A stretch of 64,000 bases of DNA from Candidatus Latescibacterota bacterium (GCA_965237675.1 OZ250150.1:3200001-3264000), one strand, 5' to 3'; positions 21,194 to 53,148 are shown, counted from the first letter of the stretch. Translations and numbers: made by a program. Notes: generated from the letters alone by a model not told the origin.

Positions 21194-21224
21194 CATTTGT
21201 CGGACGAGGGAGAGACATCGAACG

Positions 21225-31229: not shown

Positions 31230-32426
31230 ATGATGAAAATCCTCGAACATGTGTGGTGGCGGTACTTGCTGACGTTCGGCCTGTTTCTGGCTGTGGCTGA
31301 CTGCGGCAAGACACCGCCCACCGTGGACGATGATCTGTACGAAGAGTACCCGGGGTTGCCCTACGGGATCATGATCACCCTCGCCGGCACCGGAGATGCA
31401 GGCAGGAACGCCACGGGATCGGGTCCTCTGGATACGCACCTGTATTTTCCCCAGGATATGACCGTTGGACCCGACGGTCGGACATACATTCTGGATTGGA
31501 ACAACAATCGCGTTCTTGTGATCGACAACGGAATCGTGCGTCCCCTGATCGGTAGCGGCGAACCGGGTGATGCGCTCGCGGGTCCGGCACTGGAGGTGGG
31601 CATCGACCACCCGACCCATATTTCGTTCGATCCCCAGGGAAGATTGATCCTTTCGGCCTGGCAGAATGCCAGGATCCTGAGGTATGATTTTACCACAGGC
31701 CGCGTCGAACCCATTGCCGGCCGGGGCGAACGCGGTTTCGGGGGCGACGGCGGCCCCGCTCTCGAAGCCTCGTTAAATCTTCCGAGTTCCACGGTCTTCG
31801 ACGAATCCGGCCGTATGTATATCTCGGATCAGGGCAACCTTCGCATTCGTATGGTGGATCTCAACGGTGTGATCTCCACCGTTGCGGGAACCGGACGGGA
31901 GGGACTTGCCGGGGACGGTGGTCCTGCCATTCTGGCCGACCTCTATGCACCGACAGGAGACGCGGCGCAGCCCGCCGGCCGGATTGCCATGGATAGCCGG
32001 GGCAACCTTTATATCGCAGATACGTTCAACAATCGCATCCGCATGGTGGATACCACAGGCAGAATCAGCACGGTGGCCGGCGGCAGCAGTATCGGCCCGA
32101 CTGCCGGAACGTATTCCGGAGATGGCGGACCGGCGACCGAGGCCAACCTCTCGCGCCCCAGCGACGTGGTCGTCGATGCGGAGGGAAACCTGTTTATTGC
32201 CGATACCGGTAACCATTGTATCCGCAAGGTGGATACCAGCGGTTTTATTACCACCCTGGCCGGCCGGTGTGGAGAGCCGGGTTTCAAGGGCGACAGCGAC
32301 CATCCCCGGTGGGGAAAACTCAGGAGTCCCTACGGGGTTGCACTCGATCAGGACGAGAATCTGTACATCGCCGATACGTTCAACCATCGGATTCGCGTGG
32401 TGTACAAGAATGTCGTCGAAAGATGA
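31230..32426 (+). CDS. NHL-repeat (teneurin-like) exported protein, probable lipoprotein
   Basis: Repeated GDGGPA...L..P..V..D..GNLYIADT.N.RIR.VD units. Hydrophobic N-terminus ending LAVADC. Confidence 0.88.
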   Translation: MMKILEHVWWRYLLTFGLFLAVADCGKTPPTVDDDLYEEYPGLPYGIMITLAGTGDAGRNATGSGPLDTHLYFPQDMTVGPDGRTYILDWNNNRVLVIDNGIVRPLIGSGEPGDALAGPALEVGIDHPTHISFDPQGRLILSAWQNARILRYDFTTGRVEPIAGRGERGFGGDGGPALEASLNLPSSTVFDESGRMYISDQGNLRIRMVDLNGVISTVAGTGREGLAGDGGPAILADLYAPTGDAAQPAGRIAMDSRGNLYIADTFNNRIRMVDTTGRISTVAGGSSIGPTAGTYSGDGGPATEANLSRPSDVVVDAEGNLFIADTGNHCIRKVDTSGFITTLAGRCGEPGFKGDSDHPRWGKLRSPYGVALDQDENLYIADTFNHRIRVVYKNVVER

Positions 32427-32491
32427 TCCGTCAATCGGTCAGCGGGGGACATGGTTTTCGGGTATGGATGCCGTTCCTCGAGGGAGTGTTT

Positions 32492-32995
32492 ATGGGCGGG
32501 ACAAAACTGGTTTGGATCACCGGGGTTGTGCTGGGGGCGGGTCTGATATTCAGTTTCCCCGATGTCGGGGCCGCAAAGGACGGAAAATCCAATCCTTTAC
32601 CTCGGGTGCAGGTCGTCACGCTCGAGGGAGATACGCTGAGTCTGGCCGAGGTCTGCGAAGGAAAGACATCCTTCATTTATTTGTGGGCCACCTGGTGCAA
32701 AACCTGCAAGAAGGATATGGAGAATGTCTTCAAGTTGCGGGAGAAATTCGGAGAGAGGGTGCAGGTCTTCGGCATCGCATGGAAGAATAGCGCGGAGGAG
32801 ATCCAGACCTACTTCGCCGGAAGGAAAGAATCGCTGCACAGCTACATCGATACCGACGGACGTGTGTTCGAGGCTTTCGACACCCGGTTGACGCCCACGG
32901 TTGTGATCGTAGACGGCCGCGGGGAGGTCCTTTTTTCCGGGTACGCTTCCTTTCGAAGATTCAGAAAATTGCTGGACAAGGCATTGAAAGGCTAG
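32492..32995 (+). CDS. TlpA-family thiol-disulfide oxidoreductase
   Basis: WATWCKTC active site, cis-Pro region LTPTVVIVDGRG, N-terminal signal/anchor. Confidence 0.88.
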   Translation: MGGTKLVWITGVVLGAGLIFSFPDVGAAKDGKSNPLPRVQVVTLEGDTLSLAEVCEGKTSFIYLWATWCKTCKKDMENVFKLREKFGERVQVFGIAWKNSAEEIQTYFAGRKESLHSYIDTDGRVFEAFDTRLTPTVVIVDGRGEVLFSGYASFRRFRKLLDKALKG

Positions 32996-33031
32996 TGTTC
33001 TGTCCCGGAAATAGATTGCCGAAATTCGGCC
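32992..33031 (+). repeat. 40-bp dispersed repeat, copy 1 (provides the tlpA stop codon)
   Basis: CTAGTGTTCTGTCCCGGAAATAGATTGCCGAAATTCGGCC, 38/40 identical to 46426-46465. Confidence 0.85.
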
Positions 33032-33071
33032 GCCGAGCGATGGCAACGCAGCGAGAAGGGATGAATCGGCG

Positions 33072-33107
33072 CCTGCCTGTGCGTGCTGCCTCACGCACGC
33101 AGACAGG
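33072..33107. repeat. REP-like imperfect palindrome
   Basis: CCTGCCTGTGCGTG...CACGCACGCAGACAGG. Confidence 0.55.
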
Positions 33108-33186
33108 GAAGAATGGTGACATATTTCTGGGAGGTGACACCGGTCGTCGATTGAACGCTAACCACAACGTTGGAGGAGCGTGGACG

Positions 33187-34161
33187 ATGAGACGAGTATT
33201 ACTGGTTTTTCCGTTGATCCTGCTCACCCACCTGGTTCTCGGAAACAAATCTGTTCTGGCGCAACCCGGCGTGAGTTGACGTCGTCCCGTGCTCCCGGGC
33301 GGGAGAATGCTCCAGGGCAGTCTGATTACCCAGGATCTTTTCGTTCTGAGCGTGAATTACGAGTATGAGTTTCTGGGCGATGCGATGTTTGGTACAGGGC
33401 CGATCCCCAACGTCAACCAGGAAGTCACCAGCATTTCAACGGTGTCGGTATTCGCAAGTTATGGGGTCAAGGAATGGTTCGGCGCCGCCGTGGTTCTTCC
33501 GTTTCGGTCCATAACCAACGACAAATTTCTTCTTCCAGGTCAGTACGACAACCAGTATCTGGGCGGCGATTATGTCCGGCATGCCGCCGGTCTCGGCGAC
33601 GTTGTTCTGATGTTGAACTTTGCCCCTCCTCTGCCGGAAGCATTGCCCGGGCTGCTTTTTTCGGCAGGTGTCAAGCTCGCGAACGGGTCGACCCATGCGG
33701 TCGATGAGTATGACCAGCGGTTCGCCGACTTACTGCAGGTGGGTTCCGGCAGCATGGACCCCATTTTCTCCGTAAGTCTGTCGCGCGACTTCAATAACCT
33801 GTTTTTCTCCGGTATGCTGTTCACACGCATTATTTCACGCGAGAATGTATATGGCTACAAATACGGGAACGAGTTTCAGGGCATCTTTTCAATGGAATAT
33901 ATGCATGGGGACATGTTTATTGCGGGTTTCAGCCTGAACCACGTTCACACGGCTCGCGATTATTTCCAATATGGAAAAATCGCCCGAAAACGCGGGGGCA
34001 CCTGGCTCTATGTCGCGCCGAAGCTGGGCGTACGGGCAATGGAAAATTTGAGCCTGGAGGCGAGATTGCCGCTTCCCGTTTACCAGAAAGTGAACGAAAG
34101 CCAGCTAACCTCCGATTATCAGTTCCACGTGGGCGCCACGTATCATTTTTTGGCTCGATAA
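33187..34161 (+). CDS. Outer-membrane beta-barrel (MetA/phenol-degradation 'transporter'-like), probable selenoprotein with in-frame UGA at codon 31
   Basis: GGAGGAG RBS and signal peptide MRRVLL...VLA. TGA at 33277-33279 is in frame with the 33289-34161 ORF. GLGD, QVGSGSMD and PVYQKVNESQL motifs. C-terminal GATYHF resembles a beta-signal. Confidence 0.72.
33288..33309 (+). promoter_or_regulatory. Candidate bacterial SECIS element
   Basis: CGT-G-CTCCC-[GGGC]-GGGAG-A-ATG hairpin. The G-rich apical loop begins 18 nt after the UGA. Confidence 0.6.
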
Positions 34162-34213
34162 GCGGCGAGAGAAGGCCGTGTAGCGTGGTTTTGGTAAAGA
34201 GCAGGAGGCTGCC

Positions 34214-34945
34214 GTGGCACAAAGAGACACCGAAAAGATGTGGGCCGAACTGGCGCCATTCTACGACGTATTGTATCTGTGGAAGGACTATGCGGCCGAG
34301 GCCGCACGGGTTCATCAATTGATCCAAACGCATCGGATGTCGTCCGGCAACACACTGCTGGATGTCGCGTGCGGGACCGGTGAACACACCCGGTTTCTTC
34401 GGGAGCACTACGATGTAACCGGTGTCGATCTGAATCGGGAAATGTTGAAGGTGGCGCGAAGGAAGATCCCCGGGGTCCCGTTACTTTGCCGGGATATGAC
34501 TTCTTTCGACCTGAAGCGTCGGTTTGACGCGGTTGTCTGCCTGTTCAGTTCGATTGCCTACGTCAGGATCTACCGGAACCTGAAGCGGACCATCGCTTGT
34601 TTTGGAAGACATTTGAAACCGGGTGGCATTCTTGTCATAGAGCCCTTTTTCACGACAGAGACATTTCTGCCGGGATCGATCCACGCAGGTACCCTTGAAG
34701 CCGAAGGCGTCAAGATCTCCAGACACACCGTGAGCAGGCGCCGCGGAAACCTGGCCGTTCTCGACTTCCATTTTCTTCTCTCAACCATGAAAGGCGTACA
34801 ATACTTTCGGGACACCCACGAATTGGCGCTCTTCGACCGGGAGCGATTCCTCGAAATTCTCTCGGACGCCGGACTTCGCACGTGGTATTACGAGGACGGA
34901 TTGATGCGAGATCGAGGACTCTACGTGTCGTTGAAAGCCCTTTGA
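34214..34945 (+). CDS. Class I SAM-dependent methyltransferase (TylM1/DesVI-like)
   Basis: KDYAAEA, LLDVACGTGEH, FDAVVCLFSSIAY, HLKPGG. Confidence 0.85.
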   Translation: MAQRDTEKMWAELAPFYDVLYLWKDYAAEAARVHQLIQTHRMSSGNTLLDVACGTGEHTRFLREHYDVTGVDLNREMLKVARRKIPGVPLLCRDMTSFDLKRRFDAVVCLFSSIAYVRIYRNLKRTIACFGRHLKPGGILVIEPFFTTETFLPGSIHAGTLEAEGVKISRHTVSRRRGNLAVLDFHFLLSTMKGVQYFRDTHELALFDRERFLEILSDAGLRTWYYEDGLMRDRGLYVSLKAL

Positions 34946-34992
34946 ACCACCGGATCTGGCGTCGGCCGACCGGGATCGCCCGTGAATGTCGT

Positions 34993-35021
34993 TTGATACG
35001 CCCTCTTTAAGAGCCTATATT
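34993..35021 (+). promoter_or_regulatory. Putative sigma70 promoter of the methylamine cluster
   Basis: TTGATA-17 nt-TATATT with a CTCTT-T-AAGAG palindrome in the spacer. Confidence 0.55.
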
Positions 35022-35136
35022 AGTTCGTAAAACGGCGGTCGGATGGCTTCGAACCTGAGGTCAACGCCTATGTGGCGCGATCGGTCAGGTCTGACGATGC
35101 GCCGTCCCCCTGACGCGAAGCCGGGAGTGAAATCTT

Positions 35137-36501
35137 ATGGAATCGCGTAGAGACAGTGGCAATGGAAGGACCGAGCGCAACCCCCAGGTTCTGGGCAAGA
35201 ATTTCATGTTTCCGCCCCACGTGATCGACGATATCCATATCAAGGCGAATCTGGGTCGGTATCGCATGCGCGGCATGGCGCTCTTCAAGAAGATTCCATC
35301 GTGGGACGACCTGACGTTTCTACCGGGTACGCTCACACGGTTCGTGATCGAAGGATATCGGGAAAAATGCGAAACCCGGACGGTGCTCGGGCCTATCGCC
35401 CGGCGGCCACTGGTGCTCGATATTCCCGTTTATATTACGGGGATGAGCTTCGGGGCGTTGTCCTACGAGGCGAAGGTGGCGCTGGCGAGAGGGGCCACAA
35501 TGGCGGGCACGGCGACCTGTTCCGGAGAAGGCGGAATGCTTCCCGACGAACGCCGGTATTCGGAGAAGTGGCTGTACCAGTGCATTCAGTCCCGATACGG
35601 GTTCAACCCACACCATATGCGTCTTGCCGACGGCGTGGAGTTTTTTATCGGCCAGGGATGCAAGGTGGGGCTTGGCGGACACCTGATGGGCCAGAAGGTG
35701 ACCGACCAGGTGGCCGAGATGCGGTCGTTGCCGGCAGGGATCGATCAGCGTTCGCCTGCAAGGCACCCGGACTGGCTGGGCCCCGATGATCTGGCTTTAA
35801 AGATTGAGGAGATCCGTGAGGCGACCAACTGGCAGATTCCCATTCAGTTGAAACTTGGCGCGGCGCGTGTGTACGACGACGTGCGGATGGCGGCCAAGAC
35901 GGGGCCCGACAGTATCTATATGGACGGGATGGAAGGGTCAACGGGCGCGGGACCCCATCTCGCCACCGAGGAGACGGGCGTACCGGGCATCGCGGCCATC
36001 AGGCAGGCCAGAAAGGCACTGGACGATGTGGGCAAGACCGGGGAGATAACGCTGGTCTATGCGGGCGGGATTCGCAACGGAGCCGACGTGGCCAAAGCAC
36101 TTGCGCTCGGAGCCGATGCGGTCGCCATCGGCACGGCGGCGATGGTGGCGCTGAACTGCAACAGAGATATCCCCGAGGCGGATTACGAGGGCACGGTTGG
36201 CGTGCCGGCGGGTTCCTGCTACCATTGTCATACCGGACTGTGTCCCGTGGGCGTGGCCACCCAGGACCCTGTGCTGCGCAGCCGCCTGGATCCCGATGAG
36301 GCGGCCGAACGGGTGTACAATTTCCTGCATACCCTGGCCATCGAATGTCAGATGTTCGCCAGGGCTTGCGGCAAGACCGATGTGCACTCCCTGGAGCCGG
36401 AGGATCTTGCCGCCCTGACGACGGAGGCTTCCGCCATGGCCGAGGTGCCGCTGGCGGGTACCCGGCACACCGTCGGGCATCCCGAGATGAACAGGTATTG
36501 A
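35137..36501 (+). CDS. mgsC: N-methylglutamate synthase subunit C (FMN-binding glutamate synthase family, GlxD)
   Basis: GMSFGALS, GQGCKVGLGG, IDQRSPARHPDWLGPDDL, CYHCHTGLCPVGVATQDP. Context with gmaS and tdm. Confidence 0.85.
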   Translation: MESRRDSGNGRTERNPQVLGKNFMFPPHVIDDIHIKANLGRYRMRGMALFKKIPSWDDLTFLPGTLTRFVIEGYREKCETRTVLGPIARRPLVLDIPVYITGMSFGALSYEAKVALARGATMAGTATCSGEGGMLPDERRYSEKWLYQCIQSRYGFNPHHMRLADGVEFFIGQGCKVGLGGHLMGQKVTDQVAEMRSLPAGIDQRSPARHPDWLGPDDLALKIEEIREATNWQIPIQLKLGAARVYDDVRMAAKTGPDSIYMDGMEGSTGAGPHLATEETGVPGIAAIRQARKALDDVGKTGEITLVYAGGIRNGADVAKALALGADAVAIGTAAMVALNCNRDIPEADYEGTVGVPAGSCYHCHTGLCPVGVATQDPVLRSRLDPDEAAERVYNFLHTLAIECQMFARACGKTDVHSLEPEDLAALTTEASAMAEVPLAGTRHTVGHPEMNRY

Positions 36502-36619
36502 GTATCGAAAAGGACCCCACGTTTCTATCAGGTAAGCAAACGGGGATCGTCAGATCCGGCGCCGGCCCTGCGCTATTCGGGTCGTTGCCGCGGTTGAATC
36601 GGGAAAACAGGAGAATCCG

Positions 36620-37036
36620 ATGGACAAAGCAGAAGATGTGAACTATTACCTGAAGTCCACGGGTATCGACTCGGACCGCGAGAGAGAAATCGGACAGCAC
36701 ATTGGATATCGGTACGATGTAAACTTGCTGCCGGATTATACGCTCCTGACCCCGTTCTTGAAGCGATACATCGAGGCGATGGGCTGGCGGGATCTGAATT
36801 GGTTGGAAGATGTACATATGGGATATGAAGATGGAAAGCCCGCTGTGTTCGACAGGAATATCAACGGATGGGTGCTGGTTCCCGAAGATATGGCATTGCC
36901 CGACAACCAGCAGGAGCGTGACATGATTGCGCGTGAACTGCTGGTCAAGTTTCAAATGTCCGAGAAGCATCCGATAATGGAACTCAGAGAGGCATACGAA
37001 ATAAAGTTCGAAGAGGATACCAGGGACGGCGGGTAG
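36620..37036 (+). CDS. Hypothetical acidic protein in the methylamine cluster
   Basis: AGGAG RBS, 138 aa, coding-like composition. No family recognised. Confidence 0.75.
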   Translation: MDKAEDVNYYLKSTGIDSDREREIGQHIGYRYDVNLLPDYTLLTPFLKRYIEAMGWRDLNWLEDVHMGYEDGKPAVFDRNINGWVLVPEDMALPDNQQERDMIARELLVKFQMSEKHPIMELREAYEIKFEEDTRDGG

Positions 37037-37221
37037 ACGCTGCAAACCACGGCGTTTCGCAGATGGCACGAAACGGGAGCGAACTTGCACCCGACCGGGA
37101 GATGTCTCGGGCCGCAGCGACGCCGTGTAAATTCCAGTCTCAGGGCGTTCTCAGACGGCGCGCCGCACCCTCGGCGCGTCCGATTCTTGTAGTTGGCATC
37201 CTCAAAAACCCGGGAGGCGTT

Positions 37222-38616
37222 ATGAGCAAGACCAAGATGTGGGGCCCAGAGGCGTTCTGGGGTATGGACTACGACTGGGATCCCCAGTGGTTATTGACGC
37301 CTGAGCAGGAAGCGCTCCAGGCGAAACTGATCGAACTCTGCCGGACAACGCTGCGGAATAACGCTGTCGAGAGCGATCGGAACCTGGTGTTTCCGCGGAA
37401 GAACTTCGAGGCGCTGGCTTCGCTGGGACTGCTGGGATTGATTGTGCCCGGGGAATGGGGAGGTCTGGGGGAGAACCATACGTGCACGGCGATGGTGGTG
37501 GAGACGCTTGCGCGATACGGTTGCGCCAGTACGGCGATGTGTTACACCATGCACATCGGCGCCGTGGCCGCGTCCATGTTCCGGGCGCACGACAACCCGA
37601 CGATTCAGGACTTGATGAAACGCCTCGACAGAGATGTCTTGGTGGGCACGTTATCCTATTCGGACCCCGAGACGGGTTCTCATTTCTGGTATCCGATTTC
37701 GTCGGGGGCCGAGCGGGTGGCGGGAGGCTGGAAGGTGCGCAAGAAGGCGTCGTGGACGACATCCGCGGGTTTTGCCGACTGGTACATCGTGCAGACGACG
37801 AGTCCGGATTTCGGAGGGGACTATTCAGATCTGTCCTGCTTTCTCGTGATGGCCGACGAGGTGAAAGCGGAGCCGTCCCTCTGGGATGGTCTGGGATTGC
37901 GGGGGAATCAGTCCGGCACGCTGGAGGTCGACAACGTGACGATGCCGGAGGACAGACTGGTGGGGCCCGTGGGCGACGGAGCGAACTCCAACGACGAGAC
38001 GGTGGATCCGTTTTTCCTGTTGTGCTCATCGGCATGCTGGAACGGGATTTCATTGGGGATGATCGATATCGCCAGGCGACACACAACAGCCAAACGGCAT
38101 GAGGATGTGGGCATGCGGGTGGCGGACTATCCCACGATCCAGGATTATGTGGGCGAGGCCGTGATCGATACCAATACCTCCCGTTCCTTTGTCTACCTGA
38201 TGGCCAGTGCGATGGACGATGTCACGAATCAGTGCGACTGGTCGATCCACGCGGATCTCTCGTGTATGCCGAGGTCACAGGTGCTGCACTGGATGTGGCA
38301 GGTGAAGTTCACGGCGGCAAAGAATGTGGCGAACGTCTCCGACAAGATGCTCCATGCGTGCGGCGGAACGGGGTACAAACCCGCTCTGGGTATCGAACGT
38401 TATCTGCGTGACGGCAAGGCGGGGTGGGTGATGGGGCCCACCAACGAGATCCTCCGCCAGTTTGTGGGCAAGAGCGTGTTGCTGGGATTCGACTCGCTGG
38501 ACTATTGGAACCAGTCCGTGAACGAGCGAATACTGAGGAACGAACTCAAGAAGATGGACGGCGAGAAAAAGAAGAAACTCGCACGGGAGCTTCTGGCTGA
38601 GGCCGATGAGGGGTGA
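37222..38616 (+). CDS. Acyl-CoA dehydrogenase-fold flavoprotein (possible group D monooxygenase)
   Basis: LIVPGEWGGLG, SYSDPETGSH, KKASWTTSAG, WDGLGLRGNQSG, IERYLRDGKAG. GGGAGG RBS. Stop overlaps the tdm start (TGATG). Confidence 0.85.
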   Translation: MSKTKMWGPEAFWGMDYDWDPQWLLTPEQEALQAKLIELCRTTLRNNAVESDRNLVFPRKNFEALASLGLLGLIVPGEWGGLGENHTCTAMVVETLARYGCASTAMCYTMHIGAVAASMFRAHDNPTIQDLMKRLDRDVLVGTLSYSDPETGSHFWYPISSGAERVAGGWKVRKKASWTTSAGFADWYIVQTTSPDFGGDYSDLSCFLVMADEVKAEPSLWDGLGLRGNQSGTLEVDNVTMPEDRLVGPVGDGANSNDETVDPFFLLCSSACWNGISLGMIDIARRHTTAKRHEDVGMRVADYPTIQDYVGEAVIDTNTSRSFVYLMASAMDDVTNQCDWSIHADLSCMPRSQVLHWMWQVKFTAAKNVANVSDKMLHACGGTGYKPALGIERYLRDGKAGWVMGPTNEILRQFVGKSVLLGFDSLDYWNQSVNERILRNELKKMDGEKKKKLARELLAEADEG

Positions 38617-40949
38617 TGCCTGCAAACGTCCAAACGATGGGGTCAGGATTGTTGAGATGGTCCCCCGGCAGGGAGCGCTACCGGGTGCCGGGCGGTGGGG
38701 CGATCGCCCTGGCGCTGGCACCGGGCGATCGGTTGGAGGTCGTGGACGTGGAGGGACGCCAGCGCTGCGAACTGGGCGTTTTCGGTCCGGATGGGAGTGC
38801 AGACGCGTCGCGGCTGGGTCTCCGTGCAGATGGCACGATAGCGGGTTTCGCGGCCGCGCTTGAGCGCGGGAACGAGAGCGCGCAGGCTGCTGCCGCGACA
38901 CTGCGGCGGAGGGGCATCGATCTGGCGGACGCGCCGGCGGTACAGGTCTTCGGCGGAGAGACGGTAGCAGGCGCCGAAGCGTGTTTCGCGGCCCTGCGGG
39001 ATGCCGTATGCGTGATTGCGGCGCCCGGCGGCCCGATGAGGGCAGATGCCCAGGATCCCCCCACGGACCTGGAGGTGGTGGTCAGGCGTACGCTTGCCCA
39101 AATGAAGGAACGCCCGCCGCTTCCCGCGCCCCTGGGAGACCTGCGTCTCGATTTGGAGGTGGACAGGGCGTCGGCAATCGCCTACGAGGTGAAGGCCGGG
39201 GAATACATCCAGGTCATTGACGTGGCGGGTCGCCAGTGTTCCGACTTTCTGGCATTCGACAGCAGACAACTGCAACGTGGGGTGGAACGAGGGTTGGATG
39301 CGACCACAACGCGGACGCTGACGGGCGCCGCCTATCCCGGCCCGGGCCTGTATTCGAAGTTTTACGATCAGGATATGCGGCCGCTGGTCGAAGTCGTTCG
39401 AGATACGGTGGGACGACACGATACGTTTGCGCTTGCGTGCACCGCGAAATATTACGAGGATATGGGGTATCCGGGCCACGTCAATTGTACGGACAACTTT
39501 AACGCGGCATTGGACCCGTACACAATACAGCCCCGGCGTGGCTGGCCCGCGGTGAATTTTTTTTACAATACGAGAATCGACCAGGATAACGTCCTGGTCA
39601 TGGACGAGCCCTGGTCTCGCCCGGGCGACCACGTACTTTTAAGAGCATTGACCGACCTGGTCTGCCTATCGTCCGCGTGTCCTGACGATATCGATCCCGC
39701 CAACGGCTGGGACCCGACGGAGATCCAGGTCCGCGTCTACCCCGAGCGGTACCGGTTTTCCAGAGGGATCGCGCACAGAATGACCCCAGACGCCGAGCCG
39801 AGGTTGACCAGGGAGACGGCGTTCCACGCGCGTACCTCGGCCATGACACGCGATTTCGAGGAGTATCGCGGCTACTGGCTGCCGTCGCGTTTTACCGCGA
39901 GCGGGGTCGTGGAGGAATACTACGCCTGCCGCGAGTCTGCGGTTGTGATCGATCTCTCCGCGCTTCGAAAGTTCGAAGTCCTGGGGCCGGATGCCGAGGC
40001 GCTGTTGCAGCATACGCTCACGCGCGACGTTCGCAGGCTTTCGGTTGGGCAGGTGACGTATTCGGCGATGTGTTACGAAACGGGCGGGGTGCTGGACGAC
40101 GGCACCCTGTTTCGGCTGGGATCTGAAAATTTCCGCTGGATCTGCGGCGATGATTATGGCGGTACGTGGCTGCGTGAGCAGGCAGGTCGGCTGGGTCTGC
40201 GTGTATGGGTGAGGAACTCGACCGATCAACTCCACAATCTTGCCGTGCAGGGTCCCGACAGCCGGGATATCTTGCGCAAAGTCATCTGGACGCCTCCGTC
40301 CCGCCCTTCGCTGGATGAATTGGGCTGGTTCCGTTTTACGGTGGGCCGAATGGGTGACGACAGCGGCCCGGCGGTGGTGGTTTCCAGGACGGGCTATACA
40401 GGCGAACTGGGTTATGAGATCTGGTGCCATCCCGACGACGCGCTGCGGGTATGGGATGGCGTCTGGGAGGCGGGTCAACCGCACGGCCTTGCCCCGATGG
40501 GACTGGAAGCCCTGGACGTGCTGCGGATCGAGGCGGGGCTGGTTTTTGCGGGCTGTGAGTTTGACGATCAGACGGATCCGTTCGAGGCGGGCATTGGCTT
40601 TACAGTTCCTCTCAAACGCAAGCACGAAGATTTCGTCGGTAGAGAGGCGCTGGTTCGCAGGCAGGCGCATCCGGAACGGGTGCTGGTGGGGCTGGAGGTG
40701 TCCGGAAACGAACCCGCCGGTACCGGCGATGACGTCTACGATGGGCGCGGTCGTGTGGGCGTGATTACCAGCGGCACCCGTTCGCCCATTCTGCGTAAGA
40801 ATATCGCGCTTTGCCGCATCGCGGTCGGGTACGCCAGGAATGGCGTTGAAGTGGAGGTGGGAAGGCTGGACGGCCACCAGAAGCGTATCCCCGCCCGGGT
40901 GGTGCGGTTTCCGTTTTACGATCCGGGGAAGACCCGGCCGCGTTCCTGA
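38616..40949 (+). CDS. tdm: Trimethylamine-N-oxide demethylase (DUF1989 + GcvT-like aminomethyltransferase)
   Basis: GRQCSDF, DTVGRHDTFALAC, GHVNCTDN, SACPDDID, then DLSALRKFEV and SRTGYTGELGYE. About 777 aa, matching the Tdm architecture. Confidence 0.85.
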   Translation: MPANVQTMGSGLLRWSPGRERYRVPGGGAIALALAPGDRLEVVDVEGRQRCELGVFGPDGSADASRLGLRADGTIAGFAAALERGNESAQAAAATLRRRGIDLADAPAVQVFGGETVAGAEACFAALRDAVCVIAAPGGPMRADAQDPPTDLEVVVRRTLAQMKERPPLPAPLGDLRLDLEVDRASAIAYEVKAGEYIQVIDVAGRQCSDFLAFDSRQLQRGVERGLDATTTRTLTGAAYPGPGLYSKFYDQDMRPLVEVVRDTVGRHDTFALACTAKYYEDMGYPGHVNCTDNFNAALDPYTIQPRRGWPAVNFFYNTRIDQDNVLVMDEPWSRPGDHVLLRALTDLVCLSSACPDDIDPANGWDPTEIQVRVYPERYRFSRGIAHRMTPDAEPRLTRETAFHARTSAMTRDFEEYRGYWLPSRFTASGVVEEYYACRESAVVIDLSALRKFEVLGPDAEALLQHTLTRDVRRLSVGQVTYSAMCYETGGVLDDGTLFRLGSENFRWICGDDYGGTWLREQAGRLGLRVWVRNSTDQLHNLAVQGPDSRDILRKVIWTPPSRPSLDELGWFRFTVGRMGDDSGPAVVVSRTGYTGELGYEIWCHPDDALRVWDGVWEAGQPHGLAPMGLEALDVLRIEAGLVFAGCEFDDQTDPFEAGIGFTVPLKRKHEDFVGREALVRRQAHPERVLVGLEVSGNEPAGTGDDVYDGRGRVGVITSGTRSPILRKNIALCRIAVGYARNGVEVEVGRLDGHQKRIPARVVRFPFYDPGKTRPRS

Positions 40950-41066
40950 TTGCGAAGCAACTTGCAAGTGCCGTCACGGAACGCCCGCCCGCCCCGTTTG
41001 AGGCCGCCGCGTGGCCCGCGGCGGTTGGCGCCGTATGCGACATTCCTCGCAGGAAAGGGGCATGGA

Positions 41067-41555
41067 ATGGCGTTAGATCCAATGGAGCAACGGCGGATTA
41101 TGGGTTGTTTTGCAACCGGCGTGACCGTTGTGACGACGGTTTCGGGCGGCGAGACCCGAGGGATGACAGCCAATGCGGTAACCTCGCTGTCCCTGGATCC
41201 TCCGCTGGTGATGGTGGCGGTGGACAAGGACGCGCAGATGCACGGGTACTTGAGGGGAAGCCGGTATTTTGCATTGAATATTTTAAGCGAGGACCAGGAA
41301 GCGCTCTCCACGCAATTTGCGCGCCCCGGAACCAAGGATTTTTCGAACGTGCCGACAACGACGGTTCGTACCGGGGCGCCGGTGTTCGTGGAGGCCCTCG
41401 GTTACGTGGAGTGTCGGCTCGTGGACGTATTGCGGGCTGGCGATCACGATATTTTCGTTGGAGAGATTGTGGCGGGCGATGCGGGGGACGGTCTTCCGCT
41501 GTTGTTTTACCGGGGAAAGTATCGGCGGATGATTGACGACGCGCCGCACGTCTGA
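41067..41555 (+). CDS. Flavin reductase (HpaC-like)
   Basis: FATGVTVVT, GMTANAVTSLSLDPPLV, AGDHDIFVGEI, PLLFYRGKY. Confidence 0.92.
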   Translation: MALDPMEQRRIMGCFATGVTVVTTVSGGETRGMTANAVTSLSLDPPLVMVAVDKDAQMHGYLRGSRYFALNILSEDQEALSTQFARPGTKDFSNVPTTTVRTGAPVFVEALGYVECRLVDVLRAGDHDIFVGEIVAGDAGDGLPLLFYRGKYRRMIDDAPHV

Positions 41556-41609
41556 TGCATTTTCATCGCATATGCGATTGCTTTCTTCAAGTTCATACGG
41601 GGGATAGAT

Positions 41610-43004
41610 ATGGATAACGAACTCAGTGCGTTGACCGTCATTTTTACCGAGTTCTATTACTGGGTATGTATTGTACTCATGTTCCTGATCCACGTCGGCT
41701 TCTGTCTATACGAAGTGGGTGTGTCCAGGCGGAAAAACATGATGCACACCCTGATGAAAAACGCAATGCTGATTCCCCTGGTGACCGTGACGTTCTATTT
41801 TTTCGGGTGGTGGATCTATTTTGCAGTGCAAAACGGTCCGGGTATCACGGGCGGGCTGATTGAAGCCGCATGGGCTGCGCCCTGGAATGAACTGATGGGC
41901 ACCCATATGGGCGGCAAACCGCATAGTGAGGGGTTGACAAAGGCGGATACGGCTCTCTGGGCGCGGTTGAACGGCGTGTTCTGGGCGGCGTTCCTGCTGT
42001 TTTCCTGGACGGCGGGTTCGATTCTATCGGGCGCGGTGATTGAGCGCATCCGATCCAGCGCGTTCTGGATTTTTGCCGTGTTGGTGGGTTCCATCACGTG
42101 GGTGATCGACGCGGCCTGGGGATGGTCGGCCGACGGGTGGATGGTGCAGGTACTGGGGTATCACGACGCGTATGCGTCGGGCGTGATCCACGCCATCTGT
42201 GGCGGATCCGCGCTGGCGATTCTGTATCACCTGGGACCGCGCATCGGCCGGTTCAAGCCGGACGGCGCCCCGAGGAATTTCCCTCCGCACAACACCTGGC
42301 TGGTGATTATCGGACTGTTCCTGATCTATACGGGATTCTGGGGCTTTTATGCGGCTTGCAACGTGCCCATTATGGATATCGATCCCTCCGCCGACCGGGC
42401 TTTCTTTTCGGCAACCACGATTTATCTGACCGCGACGACGTTGAGCGCCATTACCTTCAACTTCCTGATGTCGCTCGCAGGTGGATTGATGATGGGGTAT
42501 TTCGTGTCCAAGGGCGATCCGTACTGGACATTTTCGGGCGGATTGGCGGGCATCATCACGGCGTCGGCGGGAAACGATCTGTACCATCCGATGCAGGCGC
42601 TTCTCATCGGCGCATTCGGTACGTTCTGCATTTACAAGTTGCACAATTGGGTCGAACGCCGTTTCAGAATTGACGATGCCGTGGGGGCCGTTGCCGTGCA
42701 TGGTTATGCCGGGGTGATCGGGGTGATTGTCGCAGGATTCGTACTCTGGGGGTATCCGGGTGCGAACCCCGCGTACGCCCCGATTACGCCGTGGGGACAG
42801 ACCCTAGGCGCCGTCATTATGTTTTTCGTGCTGGGTTTTCTACCTTGTTACGTCGTGGGGGCAATCCTCAAAAAGCTCGGGGTTCTCCGCATCCCGCGGC
42901 GAGTTGAACTGGCGGGTATGGATCACCGGACGATCGAGAACGAAACGGCGGATGCGAGCGATCTCGTTCAGCTCGAAATTGAGGAAGCGCAAGGAGGAAA
43001 CTAG
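41610..43004 (+). CDS. amt: Ammonium/methylammonium transporter (Amt family)
   Basis: Multi-pass membrane protein. SILSGAVIER, twin His (GVIH, AVAVHG), LGPRIGRF, RIDDAVGA. Confidence 0.88.
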   Translation: MDNELSALTVIFTEFYYWVCIVLMFLIHVGFCLYEVGVSRRKNMMHTLMKNAMLIPLVTVTFYFFGWWIYFAVQNGPGITGGLIEAAWAAPWNELMGTHMGGKPHSEGLTKADTALWARLNGVFWAAFLLFSWTAGSILSGAVIERIRSSAFWIFAVLVGSITWVIDAAWGWSADGWMVQVLGYHDAYASGVIHAICGGSALAILYHLGPRIGRFKPDGAPRNFPPHNTWLVIIGLFLIYTGFWGFYAACNVPIMDIDPSADRAFFSATTIYLTATTLSAITFNFLMSLAGGLMMGYFVSKGDPYWTFSGGLAGIITASAGNDLYHPMQALLIGAFGTFCIYKLHNWVERRFRIDDAVGAVAVHGYAGVIGVIVAGFVLWGYPGANPAYAPITPWGQTLGAVIMFFVLGFLPCYVVGAILKKLGVLRIPRRVELAGMDHRTIENETADASDLVQLEIEEAQGGN

Positions 43005-43013
43005 AGAGGGCCT

Positions 43014-44699
43014 ATGCGCGAGGATGGAGTGTTGCCGGATATCGAGATCGCGAGGCAGGCCGATTTGCTACCCGTTGTCCGGGTTGCTCAGAAAATGGGC
43101 GTGCCCGAAAATCATCTCGAGCTGTACGGCAGGTACAAGGCCAAGGTTTCGATGGATTTTTACGACGGCCTGGCAGGAAATCCAACGGGCAAGCTGGTCC
43201 TGGTCTCGGCGATCAACCCGACGCCTGCCGGAGAGGGCAAGACAACCACGACGGTGGGTCTGGGCGATGCGCTGAACCGGCTGGGAAAGCGCACGGCCAT
43301 CTGCCTGCGGGAACCTTCTCTTGGCCCCTGTTTCGGCATGAAAGGGGGCGCGGCGGGCGGAGGGGCGTCTCAGGTTGCGCCGATGGAGGACATCAACCTG
43401 CACTTTACGGGCGATATCCATGCAATCGGTGTCGCTCACAATCTACTGGCCGCGGCGCTGGACAACCATATTCACCACCGGAACAGGCTGGATATCGATC
43501 TCCGGCGCATCCTGTGGAAACGCGCCATGGATATGAACGACCGGGCGCTGCGGGATATTGTCATCGGTCTGGGAGGCAGGGGGAATTCCCTCCCTCGCGA
43601 ATCGGGTTTTGAGATTACGGTCGCGTCCGAGGTGATGGCCATCTTGTGCCTGTCCGAATCGCTCGAGGAACTGCGGGAACGGCTGGGCAGAATCATCGTG
43701 GCATATACACGTGGGAACGAACCGGTCACCGCAGCCGATCTCAATGTGCACGGCGCGATGGCTGTGCTGTTGCGAGACGCCCTGAAACCGAATCTGGTCC
43801 AAACGCTCGAGAACAACCCGGCAATTGTCCACGGCGGCCCGTTCGCCAATATCGCTCACGGATGCAATTCGGTGATTGCGACCAAGCTGGCGATGCGTCT
43901 TTCCGAATATACCGTAACCGAGGCCGGGTTCGGCGCGGACCTCGGCGCGGAAAAGTTCCTGAATATCAAGTGCCGGCAGTCCGGCATTCGCCCCGACGTG
44001 GTGGTGCTGGTGGCGACCGTCCGGGGTTTGAAATACCACGGCGGCGTGTCGCTCAGGCGGCTTGGGTTGCCCAACATGGCCGCGCTTGAAAAGGGGTTGG
44101 ACAATCTGAAAAAGCATGTCGAGAATATTCGACATTTCGGCTTGCCCGCCGTCGTGACCGTGAATGCTTTCCTTTCTGACACCCCGGGCGAGGTCAGTCT
44201 GATTCAGGACAAATGGGCCGACATGGATGTGCCGATCGTACCATCAGACCACTGGGCACGAGGGGGGGCCGGGGCGGAGACGCTTGCCCGTACGGTGGTT
44301 GAAACTGCGGAGACGACGAACCCCGATTTCACCCTTCTCTATAGTGATAATCAGGGGTTGTGGGAAAAGGCCCGAATCGTGGCTCGGGAGATCTATGGTG
44401 CGGCCGACATTGTGGGGGACAGACGCCTCAGAACCAGGTTCAAGAGGCTGGAGGAAGAGGGATTCGGAAGTCTGCCGGTATGCATGGCCAAGACCCAGTA
44501 TTCGCTTTCGACCGAACCGGGATTGAAAGGTCGGCCCGCGGGCTTCGACGTGCCCATCCGCGACGTGCGGGTGTCTGCCGGAGCCGGTTTTGTTGTGGTG
44601 TTCACCGGCGATGTCATGACGATGCCCGGGCTCCCGCGAACGCCTTCCGCCGAAGCAATCGATTTTGATGAAGCCGGACAGACCGTCGGCCTGTTCTGA
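43014..44699 (+). CDS. fhs: Formate--tetrahydrofolate ligase
   Basis: [65 protein letters not shown]. Confidence 0.97.
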
Positions 44700-44837
44700 A
44701 GGTGACGGTCAGGATCGCCATTGCGGCGTAACAAGGCACCCGGGAAGTGTGACGTCTTCCGGTGTGAGAGGCTATTGCAAGGGGTTTCGCATTAGATTTC
44801 TCGTTATTTTGCGTACACCAATGTAAGGAGGCGGCAG

Positions 44838-45068
44838 ATGAGAACGGGTTTGATAGACACGTGGGTGGGGAATCCGGCTGACGTGGGTCCGATGTATCCC
44901 TTTGTCGGGTACGAGGTTCCTCTCTTCGTGGTTTGTCTTGGCTTGTGGATAGCGTATACGTTTTGGCAGATTAGACACGAGAGAGCGAATTATCGGGACG
45001 AGTTGGATCACTTGGTCGAGGCGAGTCATCTCGCAACGGCAATAGAAGGTGAAGGCAAGAATTTCTAA
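44838..45068 (+). CDS. Small single-pass membrane protein
   Basis: AAGGAGG RBS, GPMYPFVG motif, one hydrophobic segment. Confidence 0.75.
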   Translation: MRTGLIDTWVGNPADVGPMYPFVGYEVPLFVVCLGLWIAYTFWQIRHERANYRDELDHLVEASHLATAIEGEGKNF

Positions 45069-45094
45069 CCTTGATTCTTGAGGGAGATCTGACG

Positions 45095-46429
45095 ATGACG
45101 CTGGACCAGGTAAAAGAATTCGTAGCCAGGAATGGAATAGACTTTTTTTTGTGTTCGTTTGTGGAGATGGGCGGGATGCCAAAGGCCAAGGTGGTGCCCG
45201 TCACACACCTTGACGACATGGCCTCGGATGGCGCGGGTTTCGCGGGGTTCGCGGCCGGGAATATGGGGCAGGGGCCGCACGATTCCGATATGATGAACAT
45301 ACCGGATTTTAATTCGATGACCGTATTGCCGTGGCGCAAGAATACGGCGTGGGTGGCGGGCAATATCCAGGTCGAGGGAGAGTCCTACGGGTATTGTCCG
45401 CGGACGATTCTGCGGCGGCAACTTGAAAAGGCGGAGGCGAAGGGATATCGGTTGAATCTGGGCGTGGAAGCGGAGTTCATCCTCCTGAAAAAAGACGACC
45501 AGAACAACTATGCGCTGGCCGATCCGCTGGACACATTGGAGAAGCCCTGCTATGATCTCGTAACCTTGCATCGCAACCTGGACGTAATGACCACGCTGAT
45601 CGGGTATATGCAGGAACTGGGTTGGGAACCCTATGCCAACGACCACGAAGACGCAAATTGCCAGTTCGAGATCAACTGGACCTATTCCGACGCGCTGACC
45701 ACCGCCGATCGGCAGACGTTTTTCAGATGGATGGTGAAAGTGAACGCGGAGCGGCACGGATACCACGCGACCTTTATGCCGAAGCCATTTTCACACCTGA
45801 CGGGAAGCGGAGCGCATTATCACCTGAGCCTGTGGGATCCTGAGAACAGGACGAACCTGTTTCTCGACGAGGCGGATGAAAACGGCCTGTCGAAGGAAGC
45901 CTACTGGTTTATGGCGGGTATCCTTAACCACGCAAAGGGGATTTCGGCCGTTTCCGCGCCGCTCGTGAACAGCTATAAGCGCCTAACGAGGGGCGCACCA
46001 CGTTCGGGCGCGTCATGGGCGCCGATCTGCATCACCTATGGCGGATCAAACCGGACACAGATGATTCGAATCCCGGGCGCGGGCCGTATCGAGAATCGGG
46101 CCGTCGACGGGGCGGCCAATCCATATTTGACGGCCGCGGCGATGCTGGCAGCCGGGCTCGATGGCATCGAAAACCGCATGGAACCGGGCAAACGCAACGA
46201 GGGCAATCTCTACGAGGTGCCCGAGAGCGAGTTGCAAGCGCAGGGTATCGACCTGTTGCCGGGTACCCTTGCGGAGGCGGCCGATCATCTGGCGGCCGAC
46301 GATGTGCTCCGGGAAGCGCTGGGCACTGAGTATGCGGACTATTACGTGCAGGTGAAGCGCGAAGAGTGGGCGGAGTACCATCTGCACGTCGACCAGTGGG
46401 AGCGGGAACGCTATCTGCCGATTTACTAG
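45095..46429 (+). CDS. gmaS: Gamma-glutamylmethylamide synthetase (GlnT-type glutamine synthetase family)
   Basis: AKVVP, DGAGFAGFA, NDHEDANCQFEINW, TFMPKPF, NRTQMIRIP, DGAANPYL. Context with mgsC and tdm. Confidence 0.82.
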   Translation: MTLDQVKEFVARNGIDFFLCSFVEMGGMPKAKVVPVTHLDDMASDGAGFAGFAAGNMGQGPHDSDMMNIPDFNSMTVLPWRKNTAWVAGNIQVEGESYGYCPRTILRRQLEKAEAKGYRLNLGVEAEFILLKKDDQNNYALADPLDTLEKPCYDLVTLHRNLDVMTTLIGYMQELGWEPYANDHEDANCQFEINWTYSDALTTADRQTFFRWMVKVNAERHGYHATFMPKPFSHLTGSGAHYHLSLWDPENRTNLFLDEADENGLSKEAYWFMAGILNHAKGISAVSAPLVNSYKRLTRGAPRSGASWAPICITYGGSNRTQMIRIPGAGRIENRAVDGAANPYLTAAAMLAAGLDGIENRMEPGKRNEGNLYEVPESELQAQGIDLLPGTLAEAADHLAADDVLREALGTEYADYYVQVKREEWAEYHLHVDQWERERYLPIY

Positions 46430-46465
46430 TGTTCTGTACCGGAAATAGATCGCCGAAATTCGGCC
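46426..46465 (+). repeat. 40-bp dispersed repeat, copy 2 (provides the gmaS stop codon)
   Basis: CTAGTGTTCTGTACCGGAAATAGATCGCCGAAATTCGGCC. Confidence 0.85.
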
Positions 46466-46509
46466 CATCGGGAACTGTGCAGTTTCGGGTAACGTCGCGA
46501 GGTTCGTTT

Positions 46510-47853
46510 ATGGAGAATGCAGCTAGTCGGCCGGTTCGAGAGGCGCCGCGGGGCGTGGGGGGATTGCTGCGGAATATCGGACCGGGCGTGGTTGTGTCGG
46601 GTTCGGTGGTCGGCTCAGGCGAGTTGCTGGTGACCACGCGCATGGGGGCGGAGGTGGGCTTCGCGTTCCTCTGGGGGGTGATCCTGGCGTGCGTGATCAA
46701 GTTCTTCATTCAACTTGAACTTGGGCGCCAGTGCGTTTTGCACAACAGCACGACGATACAGGTCCTGGACCGCGTGCCCGGAATACGGCTGGCGAATACC
46801 TCTTGGGCGGCATGGTTGTGCGTGCTGGGTTATTTTTCGGTGATGATTGCCGTGATCGGCATCCTCGGGTCCGTGGCCGGATTGATGGTAACCCTCTTTC
46901 CCGGCGTCCCGTACAACGTGTGGGCCGTGCTGATTTTTGCGGCCATCTCTGTGCTGCTTTACAGGGGCTTGTACGCTGACCTGGAGCGAATGATCACCAT
47001 ACTGGTCGCGGGCTTCAGCCTTGTCGTAATCGGGTCGGTGTTGGCGATGCAGGCGACGCCATACGCCGTGGGGGGCGCGGAGGTATTATCGGGGTTTCGC
47101 TTTACCCTGCCCGCGGACGGGGCGTTCGTGGCCCTGGCCGTGATGGGGTCCGTGGGCGCGACGGCTGTGGAATTGTTCATGTATCCATACTGGGTACGGG
47201 AGAAGGGATACGCGGATTTTGTGGGGCCCCGGGAGGATACGCCCGAATGGCGGGCGCGGTATCGGGGCTGGATGCGGGTGCTGAAGACCGACGCGCTGGT
47301 GTGCACCGGGATCGCGTTGGTGATTACCTGCGCCTACTATCTGCTGGGGGCCTCGATATTGAAGAAGCTGAACGTGGTCCCCCAGGGCATGGAGGTCGTG
47401 GAGCAGGTTTCGCTGATTTTTACCAGAAGCATCGGTCCATGGACGAAAAACGTGTTCATGTTCGGCGCTTTCTGTACGCTGTTTTCCACGCTGCTCGTGT
47501 TCACGGCCAGTTCCGGGCGTATCGGCGTGGATTTTCTCAGGAATACGGGCGTCGCCAGTCTGGATGACGAGGCGGTTCGTCTTCGGCTGCTGCGGGCATT
47601 GCAGATCGCATTTCCGTTTCTGTGGCTTTGTGTGACCGTTGCAACTCCAGATACGCCGCTTGCCCTGGTGCTGATCGGGGCCAACGCCAACAACCTGCTG
47701 CTGATTCCGATGGCCTACGGTGTGGTGCACTTGGCGATGCGCGCTGCGGACAGGGAACGGATGTCCGTCTGGACGGAACTTGGATTGCTGTTGACAATCT
47801 GGGCGATCGTCAACTTTACCGCAGTCAACCTGTATTTGAATTGGACGCGTTAA
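46510..47853 (+). CDS. Nramp-like (APC superfamily) transporter
   Basis: IGPGVVVSGSVVGSGEL, IKFFIQLELGR, YPYWVREKG. Many hydrophobic segments. Confidence 0.8.
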   Translation: MENAASRPVREAPRGVGGLLRNIGPGVVVSGSVVGSGELLVTTRMGAEVGFAFLWGVILACVIKFFIQLELGRQCVLHNSTTIQVLDRVPGIRLANTSWAAWLCVLGYFSVMIAVIGILGSVAGLMVTLFPGVPYNVWAVLIFAAISVLLYRGLYADLERMITILVAGFSLVVIGSVLAMQATPYAVGGAEVLSGFRFTLPADGAFVALAVMGSVGATAVELFMYPYWVREKGYADFVGPREDTPEWRARYRGWMRVLKTDALVCTGIALVITCAYYLLGASILKKLNVVPQGMEVVEQVSLIFTRSIGPWTKNVFMFGAFCTLFSTLLVFTASSGRIGVDFLRNTGVASLDDEAVRLRLLRALQIAFPFLWLCVTVATPDTPLALVLIGANANNLLLIPMAYGVVHLAMRAADRERMSVWTELGLLLTIWAIVNFTAVNLYLNWTR

Positions 47854-47882
47854 GGACCTGGAAAGACGCGGGATCCTCAAGG

Positions 47883-47905
47883 GCGGCCCGGCGGCCGTTT
47901 TTTTC
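47883..47905 (+). terminator. Rho-independent terminator
   Basis: GCGGCC-CGGC-GGCCGT stem-loop followed by a T-run. Confidence 0.7.
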
Positions 47906-47944
47906 TTGTACCCCATGCTGCGGGCGCGTGAACCACGGCGGCGG

Positions 47945-52793: not shown

Positions 52794-53148
52794 AGAGTCA
52801 TACGTCGCACGCTCTATCTTCCGCGAGTTCGTGATGCCTTCACAGTATGCATATAGCAGCAGACCCACCATCATTCTCGGATCGTAGGGCGGCTGTCCAC
52901 GCCTCGACCCATCAAAGAACCCATATATCGACGACAGATCCCGTTTGCCAATGATGTCCAAAATGAAATACGCCTTATGGTCTTTCGGAAGCCATTCCCG
53001 TAGGTCTGGAGGCAATAACATCAATTGGTCTGAATGATAATCTCGAAAACGCGTTGGAGTGTCCATCACTACCTCATAAATTGGGTTCTTGGCGACACTC
53101 CTAATATATGAAACTTTCACCCAATAGGGTACTCCGACAGACACCTAG
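52785..53148 (-). mobile_element. Truncated IS1182-family element (left end plus transposase N-terminus, ATG 53066)
   Basis: QLMLLPPDLREWLPKDH, GQPPYDPRMMVGLLLYAY, SRKIERATY. End sequence CTAG-GTGTCTGTCGGAGTA on the minus strand. Confidence 0.8.

Follow-up and report, generated by a model that had tools for sequence, protein, structure and literature searches.

An acyl-CoA dehydrogenase-fold protein and a flavin reductase encoded beside TMAO demethylase: a candidate non-homologous analogue of Tmm

What reaction is carried out by a protein of the acyl-CoA dehydrogenase (ACAD) fold when its gene overlaps that of trimethylamine N-oxide (TMAO) demethylase, Tdm, and a flavin reductase gene follows? 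The question is raised by a stretch of 64,000 nucleotides, hereafter the window, from the genome of a Candidatus Latescibacterota bacterium (GCA_965237675.1, OZ250150.1:3200001-3264000; genome size 5.6 Mb, completeness 99.93%), in which the ACAD-fold protein (P0001), Tdm (P0002) and the reductase (P0003) are encoded one after the other. An earlier note on the window had proposed that P0001 and P0003 form a two-component monooxygenase of the group D type, replacing either Tmm, which oxidizes trimethylamine (TMA) to TMAO, or the dimethylamine (DMA) monooxygenase Dmm. The evidence assembled here makes it probable that P0001 works as a reduced-flavin oxygenase in the TMA/TMAO pathway, and we lean, if only somewhat, towards the more specific reading in which P0001 and P0003 would constitute a two-component flavin-dependent TMA N-oxygenase that feeds Tdm, as a non-homologous analogue of Tmm.

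Fold, active-site residues and reductase partner of P0001

P0001 matched three ACAD domains in Pfam, namely, the N-terminal domain PF02771 (58.0 bits), the C-terminal domain PF00441 (39.1 bits) and the middle domain PF02770 (33.3 bits, exactly at the cut-off). Its AlphaFold2 model (predicted local distance difference test, pLDDT, 93.0; predicted template modeling score, pTM, 0.91) recovered the ACAD fold in Foldseek searches at target-normalized TM scores of 0.84-0.92, all of these being generic matches to the fold that do not tell an oxygenase from a dehydrogenase. In HMMER alignments to solved ACADs, residues 396-407 of P0001, RDGKAGWVMGPT, pair with RDAKITQIYEGT, placing a Gly opposite the catalytic Glu (MGPT in place of YEGT); the earlier note had already pointed to another sequence in the place of the catalytic IYEGT. 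The alternative base position of the isovaleryl-CoA and long-chain acyl-CoA dehydrogenase (IVD/LCAD) type is occupied by Phe; the aligned positions that we take to be base positions include this one, the helix-G Glu. Neither carboxylate base was present in any of the 43 sequences of our alignment, in which M404 and P406 are nearly invariant and H111 is invariant, including in relatives only ~30% identical. Because the M404/P406 pattern extends to these relatives, the whole Rv1679-like neighborhood lacks the catalytic Glu. Motifs that we take to form the flavin site are retained in P0001. With Glu replaced by Gly and the alternative base by Phe, P0001 is, judged from its residues, not an acyl-CoA dehydrogenase. 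No electron transfer flavoprotein (ETF), acyl-CoA ligase or CoA transferase family was found among the 46 open reading frames (ORFs) of the window scanned against Pfam and/or NCBIfam, small ORFs and the rest of the genome not being included, in line with the earlier note, which had seen neither an ETF nor a CoA-ligase gene nearby.

The nearest curated model is that of Rv1679/FadE16 (NF049984), which P0001 matched at 219.1 bits (cut-off 600); relatives of this type, ~30% identical, have, like P0001, M-[G/A]-P where Y-E-G would stand, as well as the invariant His. A literature search at the listing level returned no function for the Rv1679 family. Among solved relatives, 5gj7/5z8t ranks third (88.7 bits); its deposited name is ‘flavin-containing monooxygenase’, and it, too, lacks the Glu. 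None of the papers searched mentions PDB entries 5GJ7, 5Z8T, 8I4P or 7W0J. No flavin-containing monooxygenase (FMO) domain was found in P0001 with Pfam or NCBIfam, and since there is no homology to the FMO fold, P0001 could be at most a functional analogue of Tmm.

P0003, which starts 117 nt past the end of tdm, matches the flavin reductase family PF01613, bearing out its description in the earlier note as HpaC-like, and its top NCBIfam matches are of the HpaC, HsaB and StyB types, all under their cut-offs. We followed this partner through related loci, the best 80 from a scan of one genome per species that found 243 relatives, where linkage counts rest on tblastn and loci with at least 8 kb on each side (46 of the 80) are termed full-flank. 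A reductase homologue lies within 52 of the 80 loci and 35 of the 46 full-flank ones. Moreover, two relatives, of 770 aa (52% identical) and 882 aa (36% identical), both animal proteins, from lobster and ostracod, carry C-terminal FAD_binding_6 and NAD_binding_1 domains. Proteins of this fused build were met, on further searching, in decapods, a stomatopod, an isopod, amphipods, barnacles, krill, an annelid, a brachiopod, corals and a chiton. Having an NAD(P)H reductase of the FNR type in the same chain suits an enzyme that uses reducing equivalents and not one that disposes of them, which argues that the ACAD-fold protein would receive electrons.

Linkage to Tdm and complementarity with Tmm

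The gene for P0001 starts with an ATG preceded by GGGAGG and ends in the TGA of a TGATG, of which the ATG, at 38616, is the start of tdm; the overlap, already pointed out in the earlier note, is confirmed and is, by its arrangement, a translational coupling of the two genes. The Tdm itself scored 1245.3 bits on NF053776 (cut-off 1100). P0001 belongs to a Tdm-linked family, 68-93% identical across at least seven phyla, that is found in Latescibacterota, Gemmatimonadota, Acidobacteriota, Verrucomicrobiota, Alpha- and Gammaproteobacteria and cyanobacteria, with 73-93% identity from one of these groups to another; cultured carriers are Xanthobacter flavus, X. oligotrophicus, Labrys okinawensis, Dongia deserti and Virgifigura deserti.

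The earlier note had expected homologues of P0001 to be linked to tdm and to be anti-correlated with tmm or dmm. The linkage is strict. Tdm was detected in 58 of the 80 loci, on the same strand as the ACAD-fold gene in 29 and on the opposite strand in 29, and because both arrangements occur, the linkage outlasts rearrangement; the order ACAD-then-Tdm on one strand, the tblastn matches lying no more than 500 nt apart, was seen in 19 of the 80. Among full-flank loci, 41 of 46 had Tdm within 10 kb, and 33 had both Tdm and the reductase. Whole-genome searches found Tdm in all 50 family-bearing genomes examined, a subset of the 80 loci picked for longer contigs, with 45 matches over the cut-off and 5 partial or N-terminally short. 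The background frequency of Tdm was 37/401 in a class sample centered on Xanthobacter and 22/400 in one centered on a Burkholderiales genome. A search of the 401-genome sample with P0001 gave 11 matches at E<=1e-100. Nine genomes had a copy with at least 68% identity, every one of them being Tdm-positive, and the other two, both Tdm-negative, held only a 60% paralogue.

These two unbiased class samples (401 + 400 genomes) together yielded 59 Tdm-positive genomes, which served as the co-occurrence set. The family was present in 11 of them, Tmm in 36, both in none and neither in 12. Tmm thus occurred in 0/11 family-positive versus 36/48 family-negative Tdm-positive genomes (pooled Fisher p=4.8e-6), and the pattern held in the first sample (0/9 versus 19/28, p=3.9e-4) and in the second (0/2 versus 17/20, p=0.043). 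In contrast, DmmA occurred at the same rate either way (3/11 versus 14/48, p=1). The anti-correlation is therefore present for tmm and absent for dmmA, and of the two replacements put forward in the earlier note, only that of Tmm gains support: the pattern is what replacement of Tmm, and not replacement of Dmm, would predict. Within the two samples, the family covers 11 of the 23 Tdm-positive genomes without Tmm. Among the 50 family-bearing genomes, Tmm was found over the cut-off in 4 and DmmA in 6. In the genome of the window, neither Tmm (PF00743, NF058570) nor DmmA (PF11927) was found genome-wide, extending their absence from the window, which the earlier note had recorded; as a control, the PF11927 search was positive in three of five cultured carrier genomes. 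A TMA or DMA dehydrogenase was likewise considered for this genome and rejected, as the sole match to the old yellow enzyme (OYE) family was a 542-aa protein with weak scores, and there was no gene resembling TMA dehydrogenase.

A source of TMA may be encoded beside the pair in some lineages. In 8 of the 80 loci, a lyase of the histidine ammonia-lyase (HAL) family lies next to the reductase and ACAD-fold genes, and all eight lack the Ala-Ser-Gly motif that forms the methylideneimidazolone (MIO) group. Those HAL-family members without MIO that have been characterized are trimethylammonia-lyases releasing TMA (10.1101/2025.08.13.670108), and the eight loci could possibly hold a betaine trimethylammonia-lyase module supplying TMA. 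The lyases in question (L028, L031, L037, L039, L046, L048, L049 and L053) have GGAGE where the ASG is expected, and their loci usually also encode a protein of the fatty-acid-desaturase family.

Proposed reaction and competing readings

In the scheme that we infer, for substrate, flavin chemistry and direction of flux alike, P0003 would use NAD(P)H to reduce free flavin, and P0001 would bind the reduced flavin and react it with O2 to form a C4a-hydroperoxyflavin, which would be attacked by the lone pair of TMA to yield TMAO. The translationally coupled Tdm would then cleave TMAO to DMA and formaldehyde, the latter being captured as methylene-tetrahydrofolate (methylene-THF), and the C1 unit would be handed to the folate enzymes encoded alongside. 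An Amt-type channel may let the amine in.

P0001 is predicted to catalyze the reaction of Tmm (NF058570), TMA to TMAO, and likewise has tdm as its genomic partner. However, Tmm is a single-component NADPH/FAD enzyme of the Rossmann-fold FMO type, whereas P0001 has the ACAD fold and a separate flavin reductase, and the two are not homologous. With group D monooxygenases (DszC, HsaA, SfnB and the p-hydroxyphenylacetate hydroxylase oxygenase), P0001 and P0003 share the ACAD fold, the loss of the base and a PF01613 reductase, but the known substrates of that group are aromatic, steroid or sulfur compounds, whereas that of P0001 would be a small aliphatic amine. Nitrososynthases carry out amine N-oxygenation on an ACAD fold with an external flavin reductase; KijD3 (3m9v/4kcf), DnmZ (4zxv) and ORF36 (3mxl) show homology to P0001 at 48-53 bits, ranking under two dozen ordinary ACADs in the search of solved structures. 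These enzymes serve antibiotic biosynthesis, with the primary amine of TDP-amino sugars as their target, whereas P0001 would be catabolic and act on a tertiary methylamine. We found no literature that connects an enzyme of the ACAD fold with tdm or with the oxidation of TMA, supplementary files not being covered by the search.

Several observations weigh against the assignment of the pair as a TMA N-oxygenase. The group D character suggested in the earlier note stands as to fold, base loss and reductase partner, but not as to curated models, against all of which P0001 scores far under the cut-off: HsaA 60.1 bits (cut-off 450), SfnB 57.7 (430.9), DszC 51.1 (850) and HpaH oxygenase 36.1 (650). 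PF08028, a domain typical of group D, reaches 20.9 bits (cut-off 22.7), and in sequence, true ACADs and the Rv1679 family are closer to P0001 than are DszC, HsaA, SfnB or KijD3. No reductase is found nearby in 11 of the 46 full-flank loci, cyanobacterial ones included. A true Tmm is also encoded in four of the 50 family-bearing genomes, within or adjacent to the cluster in three of these, so that the two are not strictly exclusive: in L040, a few kb separate a classical tdm-tmm pair from the ACAD-fold gene; in L065, the immediate neighbor of that gene is tmm; and in L058, tmm lies just past the end of the locus. Furthermore, 12 of the 59 Tdm-positive genomes have neither Tmm nor the family, so Tdm needs no upstream oxygenase. 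The co-occurrence statistics treat genomes as independent, with no phylogenetic correction, and the short branches of the family tree suggest transfer of the cassette, which would inflate this apparent independence. Finally, no known enzyme for the conversion of DMA to monomethylamine (MMA) was seen in the genome of the window, leaving room for another role of the pair; yet because the gap is general among Tdm-positive genomes, 34 of the 48 family-negative ones also lacking DmmA, it says nothing about this enzyme.

The alternative that survives best, to which we give a real if minor chance, is that the pair is a reduced-flavin oxygenase for another substrate of the same pathway, for example, a tertiary amine other than TMA that Tdm demethylates as the N-oxide, or a sulfur compound or other C1 compound, with Tmm absent for ecological reasons. 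TMA is assigned as the substrate from context; the ~60% paralogue occurs in Tdm-less genomes, so the wider family extends beyond TMA; and the fused animal homologues are found in freshwater and terrestrial species as well. Nevertheless, TMA accounts most simply for the linkage to Tdm (50 of 50 genomes), for the coupling in translation and for the complementarity with Tmm specifically, and lyases of the MIO-less, TMA-releasing type adjoin the pair in eight loci.

Less probable, and in our view unlikely, is that the pair N-hydroxylates DMA, instead of or besides TMA, and that Tdm or a relative rearranges the resulting N,N-dimethylhydroxylamine to methylamine and formaldehyde, so that oxygenase and Tdm would stand in for Dmm. 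The flavin hydroperoxide of FMOs can N-oxygenate secondary amines; DmmA is missing from 44 of the 50 family-bearing genomes and from that of the window, although genes for methylamine use are present; and three of the four genomes with both Tmm and the family have no DmmA. Against this, DmmA is not complementary to the family, most Tdm-positive genomes lack it regardless of the family, and the paper on the cryo-electron microscopy structure of Tdm does not mention hydroxylamine or analogue substrates. The oxygenase DmmDABC, a heme-dependent oxidative N-demethylase with a PF11927 alpha subunit, is a heme-PAS enzyme unrelated to the ACAD fold, which belongs to the same pathway and is encoded in the same cluster as the family in four related loci (L052, L076, L077 and L078), of which L052 comes from Xanthobacter flavus 301, an isolate lacking Tmm. 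Replacement of Dmm was accordingly rejected as the principal explanation, given that DmmA is both independent of the family and co-clustered with it.

An extension of the TMA and DMA schemes, which we regard as speculative and improbable, would make the pair and Tdm an iterative module: the pair would N-oxygenate TMA first and DMA next, yielding N,N-dimethylhydroxylamine from DMA, Tdm would convert each product to the next lower amine and methylene-THF, and the fused animal orthologues of crustaceans, corals, brachiopods and annelids would provide a second, non-FMO route to TMAO. If this were true, the module would supply the DMA-to-MMA step for which 44 of the 50 family-bearing genomes have no enzyme.

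Two further readings are very improbable. One is that P0001 is a true dehydrogenase or reductase of acyl-CoA or of an acyl carrier, its substrate being, for instance, a trimethylammonio-acyl-CoA from carnitine or betaine breakdown. This would agree with the best solved-structure and Pfam matches being ACADs and with crotonobetainyl-CoA dehydrogenase being matched weakly (64 bits, cut-off 540), but both known base positions lack an acidic residue, the scanned ORFs of the window include no ETF, CoA ligase or CoA transferase, and the partner is a free-flavin reductase, with homologues fused to NAD(P)H reductase domains. Equally improbable is oxidation of the amine C-N bond by a dehydrogenase or oxidase, with the flavin reductase unrelated: hydride-transfer amine oxidation requires no carboxylate base and an ACAD-fold oxidase, nitroalkane oxidase, exists, but the reductase recurs in 52 of the 80 loci, its fusion in animals would be senseless for an enzyme disposing of electrons, and complementarity with Tmm is not predicted.

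Gene array, family spread and implications

From 33.3 to 47.9 kb of the window, every gene is on the + strand (Table 1). The role of the type III glutamine-synthetase-like protein as gamma-glutamylmethylamide synthetase (GmaS) is inferred from gene context. An Amt-family gene recurs adjoining the pair in related loci of distant phyla, cyanobacteria included. The hairpin with its T-rich tail may mark a transcription-unit boundary or an attenuator; Rfam gave no match over 32000-48500 at E<=0.1. Where related loci carry them, the MgsC-like protein and P0124 are 84-98% and 66-92% identical, respectively, across phyla. The two genes were always found together; in other lineages they come after genes for MgsA-like (glutamine amidotransferase, GATase) and MgsB-like (GXGXG) proteins, the place of which is taken in the clade of the window by an unrelated ORF and a methyltransferase. 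That these two might be divergent MgsA and MgsB was ruled out, as BLASTP showed zero similarity. P0124 had no Pfam or NCBIfam match and no usable match in the ESM Atlas.

Table 1. Features of the + strand gene array around tdm, in window coordinates
Feature	Position	Strand	Remarks
Unknown ORF	33289-34161	+	
S-adenosylmethionine (SAM) methyltransferase	34214-34945	+	
Stand-alone glutamate-synthase FMN-domain protein (MgsC-like)	35137-36501	+	PF01645, 303.1 bits
P0124, conserved protein, 138 aa	36620-37036	+	no known family; directly 3' of the MgsC-like gene
GC-rich hairpin followed by T-rich tail	37157-37180	+	consensus scan; inside the 185-nt gap 5' of the ACAD-fold gene
P0001, ACAD-fold protein, 464 aa, predicted oxygenase component	37222-38616	+	N- and C-terminal extensions
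TGATG stop/start overlap of ACAD-fold gene and tdm	38614-38618	+	
P0002, TMAO demethylase Tdm, 777 aa	38616-40949	+	DUF1989 and GcvT THF-binding domains (Pfam DUF1989, GCV_T, GCV_T_C)
P0003, HpaC/HsaB-like NAD(P)H:flavin reductase, 162 aa, predicted reductase component	41067-41555	+	PF01613, 152.9 bits
Amt-family channel, candidate importer of amines/methylammonium	41610-43004	+	PF00909, 198.6 bits; TIGR00836, 190.7 bits, under cut-off
Formate-tetrahydrofolate ligase	43014-44699	+	C1-THF handling 3' of Tdm; NF010030, 862.4 bits (cut-off 652)
Type III glutamine-synthetase-like protein, candidate GmaS	45071-46429	+	TIGR03105, 586.5 bits (cut-off 469.6)
Nramp-like transporter		+	after the glutamine-synthetase-like gene

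A second methylamine locus of the same genome (L115, G000:C1:4528001-4548000), 1.3 Mb from the window, encodes a GmaS-like protein of the type III glutamine synthetase kind, a GATase, two GXGXG proteins, a GltS-domain protein and SoxB- and SoxD/SoxA-like proteins, and looks like a complete N-methylglutamate pathway (GmaS-, MgsA/B/C- and SoxA/B/D-like). Some 20 kb upstream of the pair, at 16005-17375 of the window, lies the gene of a protein with a domain resembling the C-terminal domain of the N,N-dimethylformamidase (DMFase) beta subunit (PF20254, 212.6 bits); true DMFases release dimethylamine. Farther from the subject, the window encodes caprolactamase/hydantoinase-type alpha- and beta-like proteins (19100-22979) and two tandem paralogous ankyrin-repeat proteins (23049-23885 and 24274-24996). 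The ORF at 52068-53144 joins an N-terminal match to IS1182 transposase with a C-terminal match to caprolactamase alpha, suggesting a gene disrupted by insertion. The segment 55375-64000, probably a mobile or defense islet, encodes an IS1380 transposase (60220-61584) as well as a P-loop protein of 1243 aa that weakly resembles BrxC; past 60 kb of the window, the GC content drops from ~0.6 to 0.49-0.51.

In an exhaustive profile search, clustering at 50% left a single full-length representative of the family (74% identical, 833 bits), behind which further relatives came at 570, 518, 421 and 326 bits. In a quick tree, the Tdm-linked family is set apart from Rv1679-like relatives by a long branch (length 1.97, support 100), and its internal branches are very short across phyla, a pattern that points either to constraint of unusual strength or to a cassette that has moved between phyla recently. 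Paralogues that are 50-63% identical make up a divergent clade, which is found in a Tdm-less context in L116 (G090) and L117 (G441) and also comprises L110, L111 and P0127; its neighbors include a 750-aa FadH/OYE-type Fe-S flavoprotein, cupins, a PhyH dioxygenase and glycosyltransferases, with a GcvT-like protein in L117. In the cyanobacterial loci L075 and L080, an Amt-family gene is present and there is no flavin reductase within 10 kb; the Tdm proteins of the genomes behind these two loci and behind L071, from an uncultured bacterium, three of the 50 genomes searched, lack the first ~140 model residues and score 814-830 bits, under the cut-off. The animal homologues (P0126, P0138 and P0303-P0366), ~770 aa long, share 36-56% identity with the bacterial family and group as a single clade in a quick tree; the amphipods that have them include the hadal Hirondellea gigas. 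Their fusion module resembles cytochrome-b5 reductase (FAD/NAD), and often there are several copies per species. Many of the animals with the fused homologue accumulate TMAO, and freshwater and terrestrial species carry the gene, too.

The oxidation of TMA to TMAO is currently ascribed to Tmm of the FMO type, and environmental surveys count tmm to estimate which organisms consume TMA. If P0001 and P0003 are a TMA N-oxygenase, such surveys would miss TMA oxidizers in Latescibacterota, Gemmatimonadota, Acidobacteriota, Verrucomicrobiota, cyanobacteria and many soil and freshwater Alphaproteobacteria. A catabolic small-amine N-oxygenase would thereby be added to the ACAD-fold oxygenases, and the uncharacterized Rv1679-like clade with the M-G/A-P motif would gain a first functional handle. 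The fused animal homologues, in turn, raise a testable question on TMAO synthesis in marine invertebrates.

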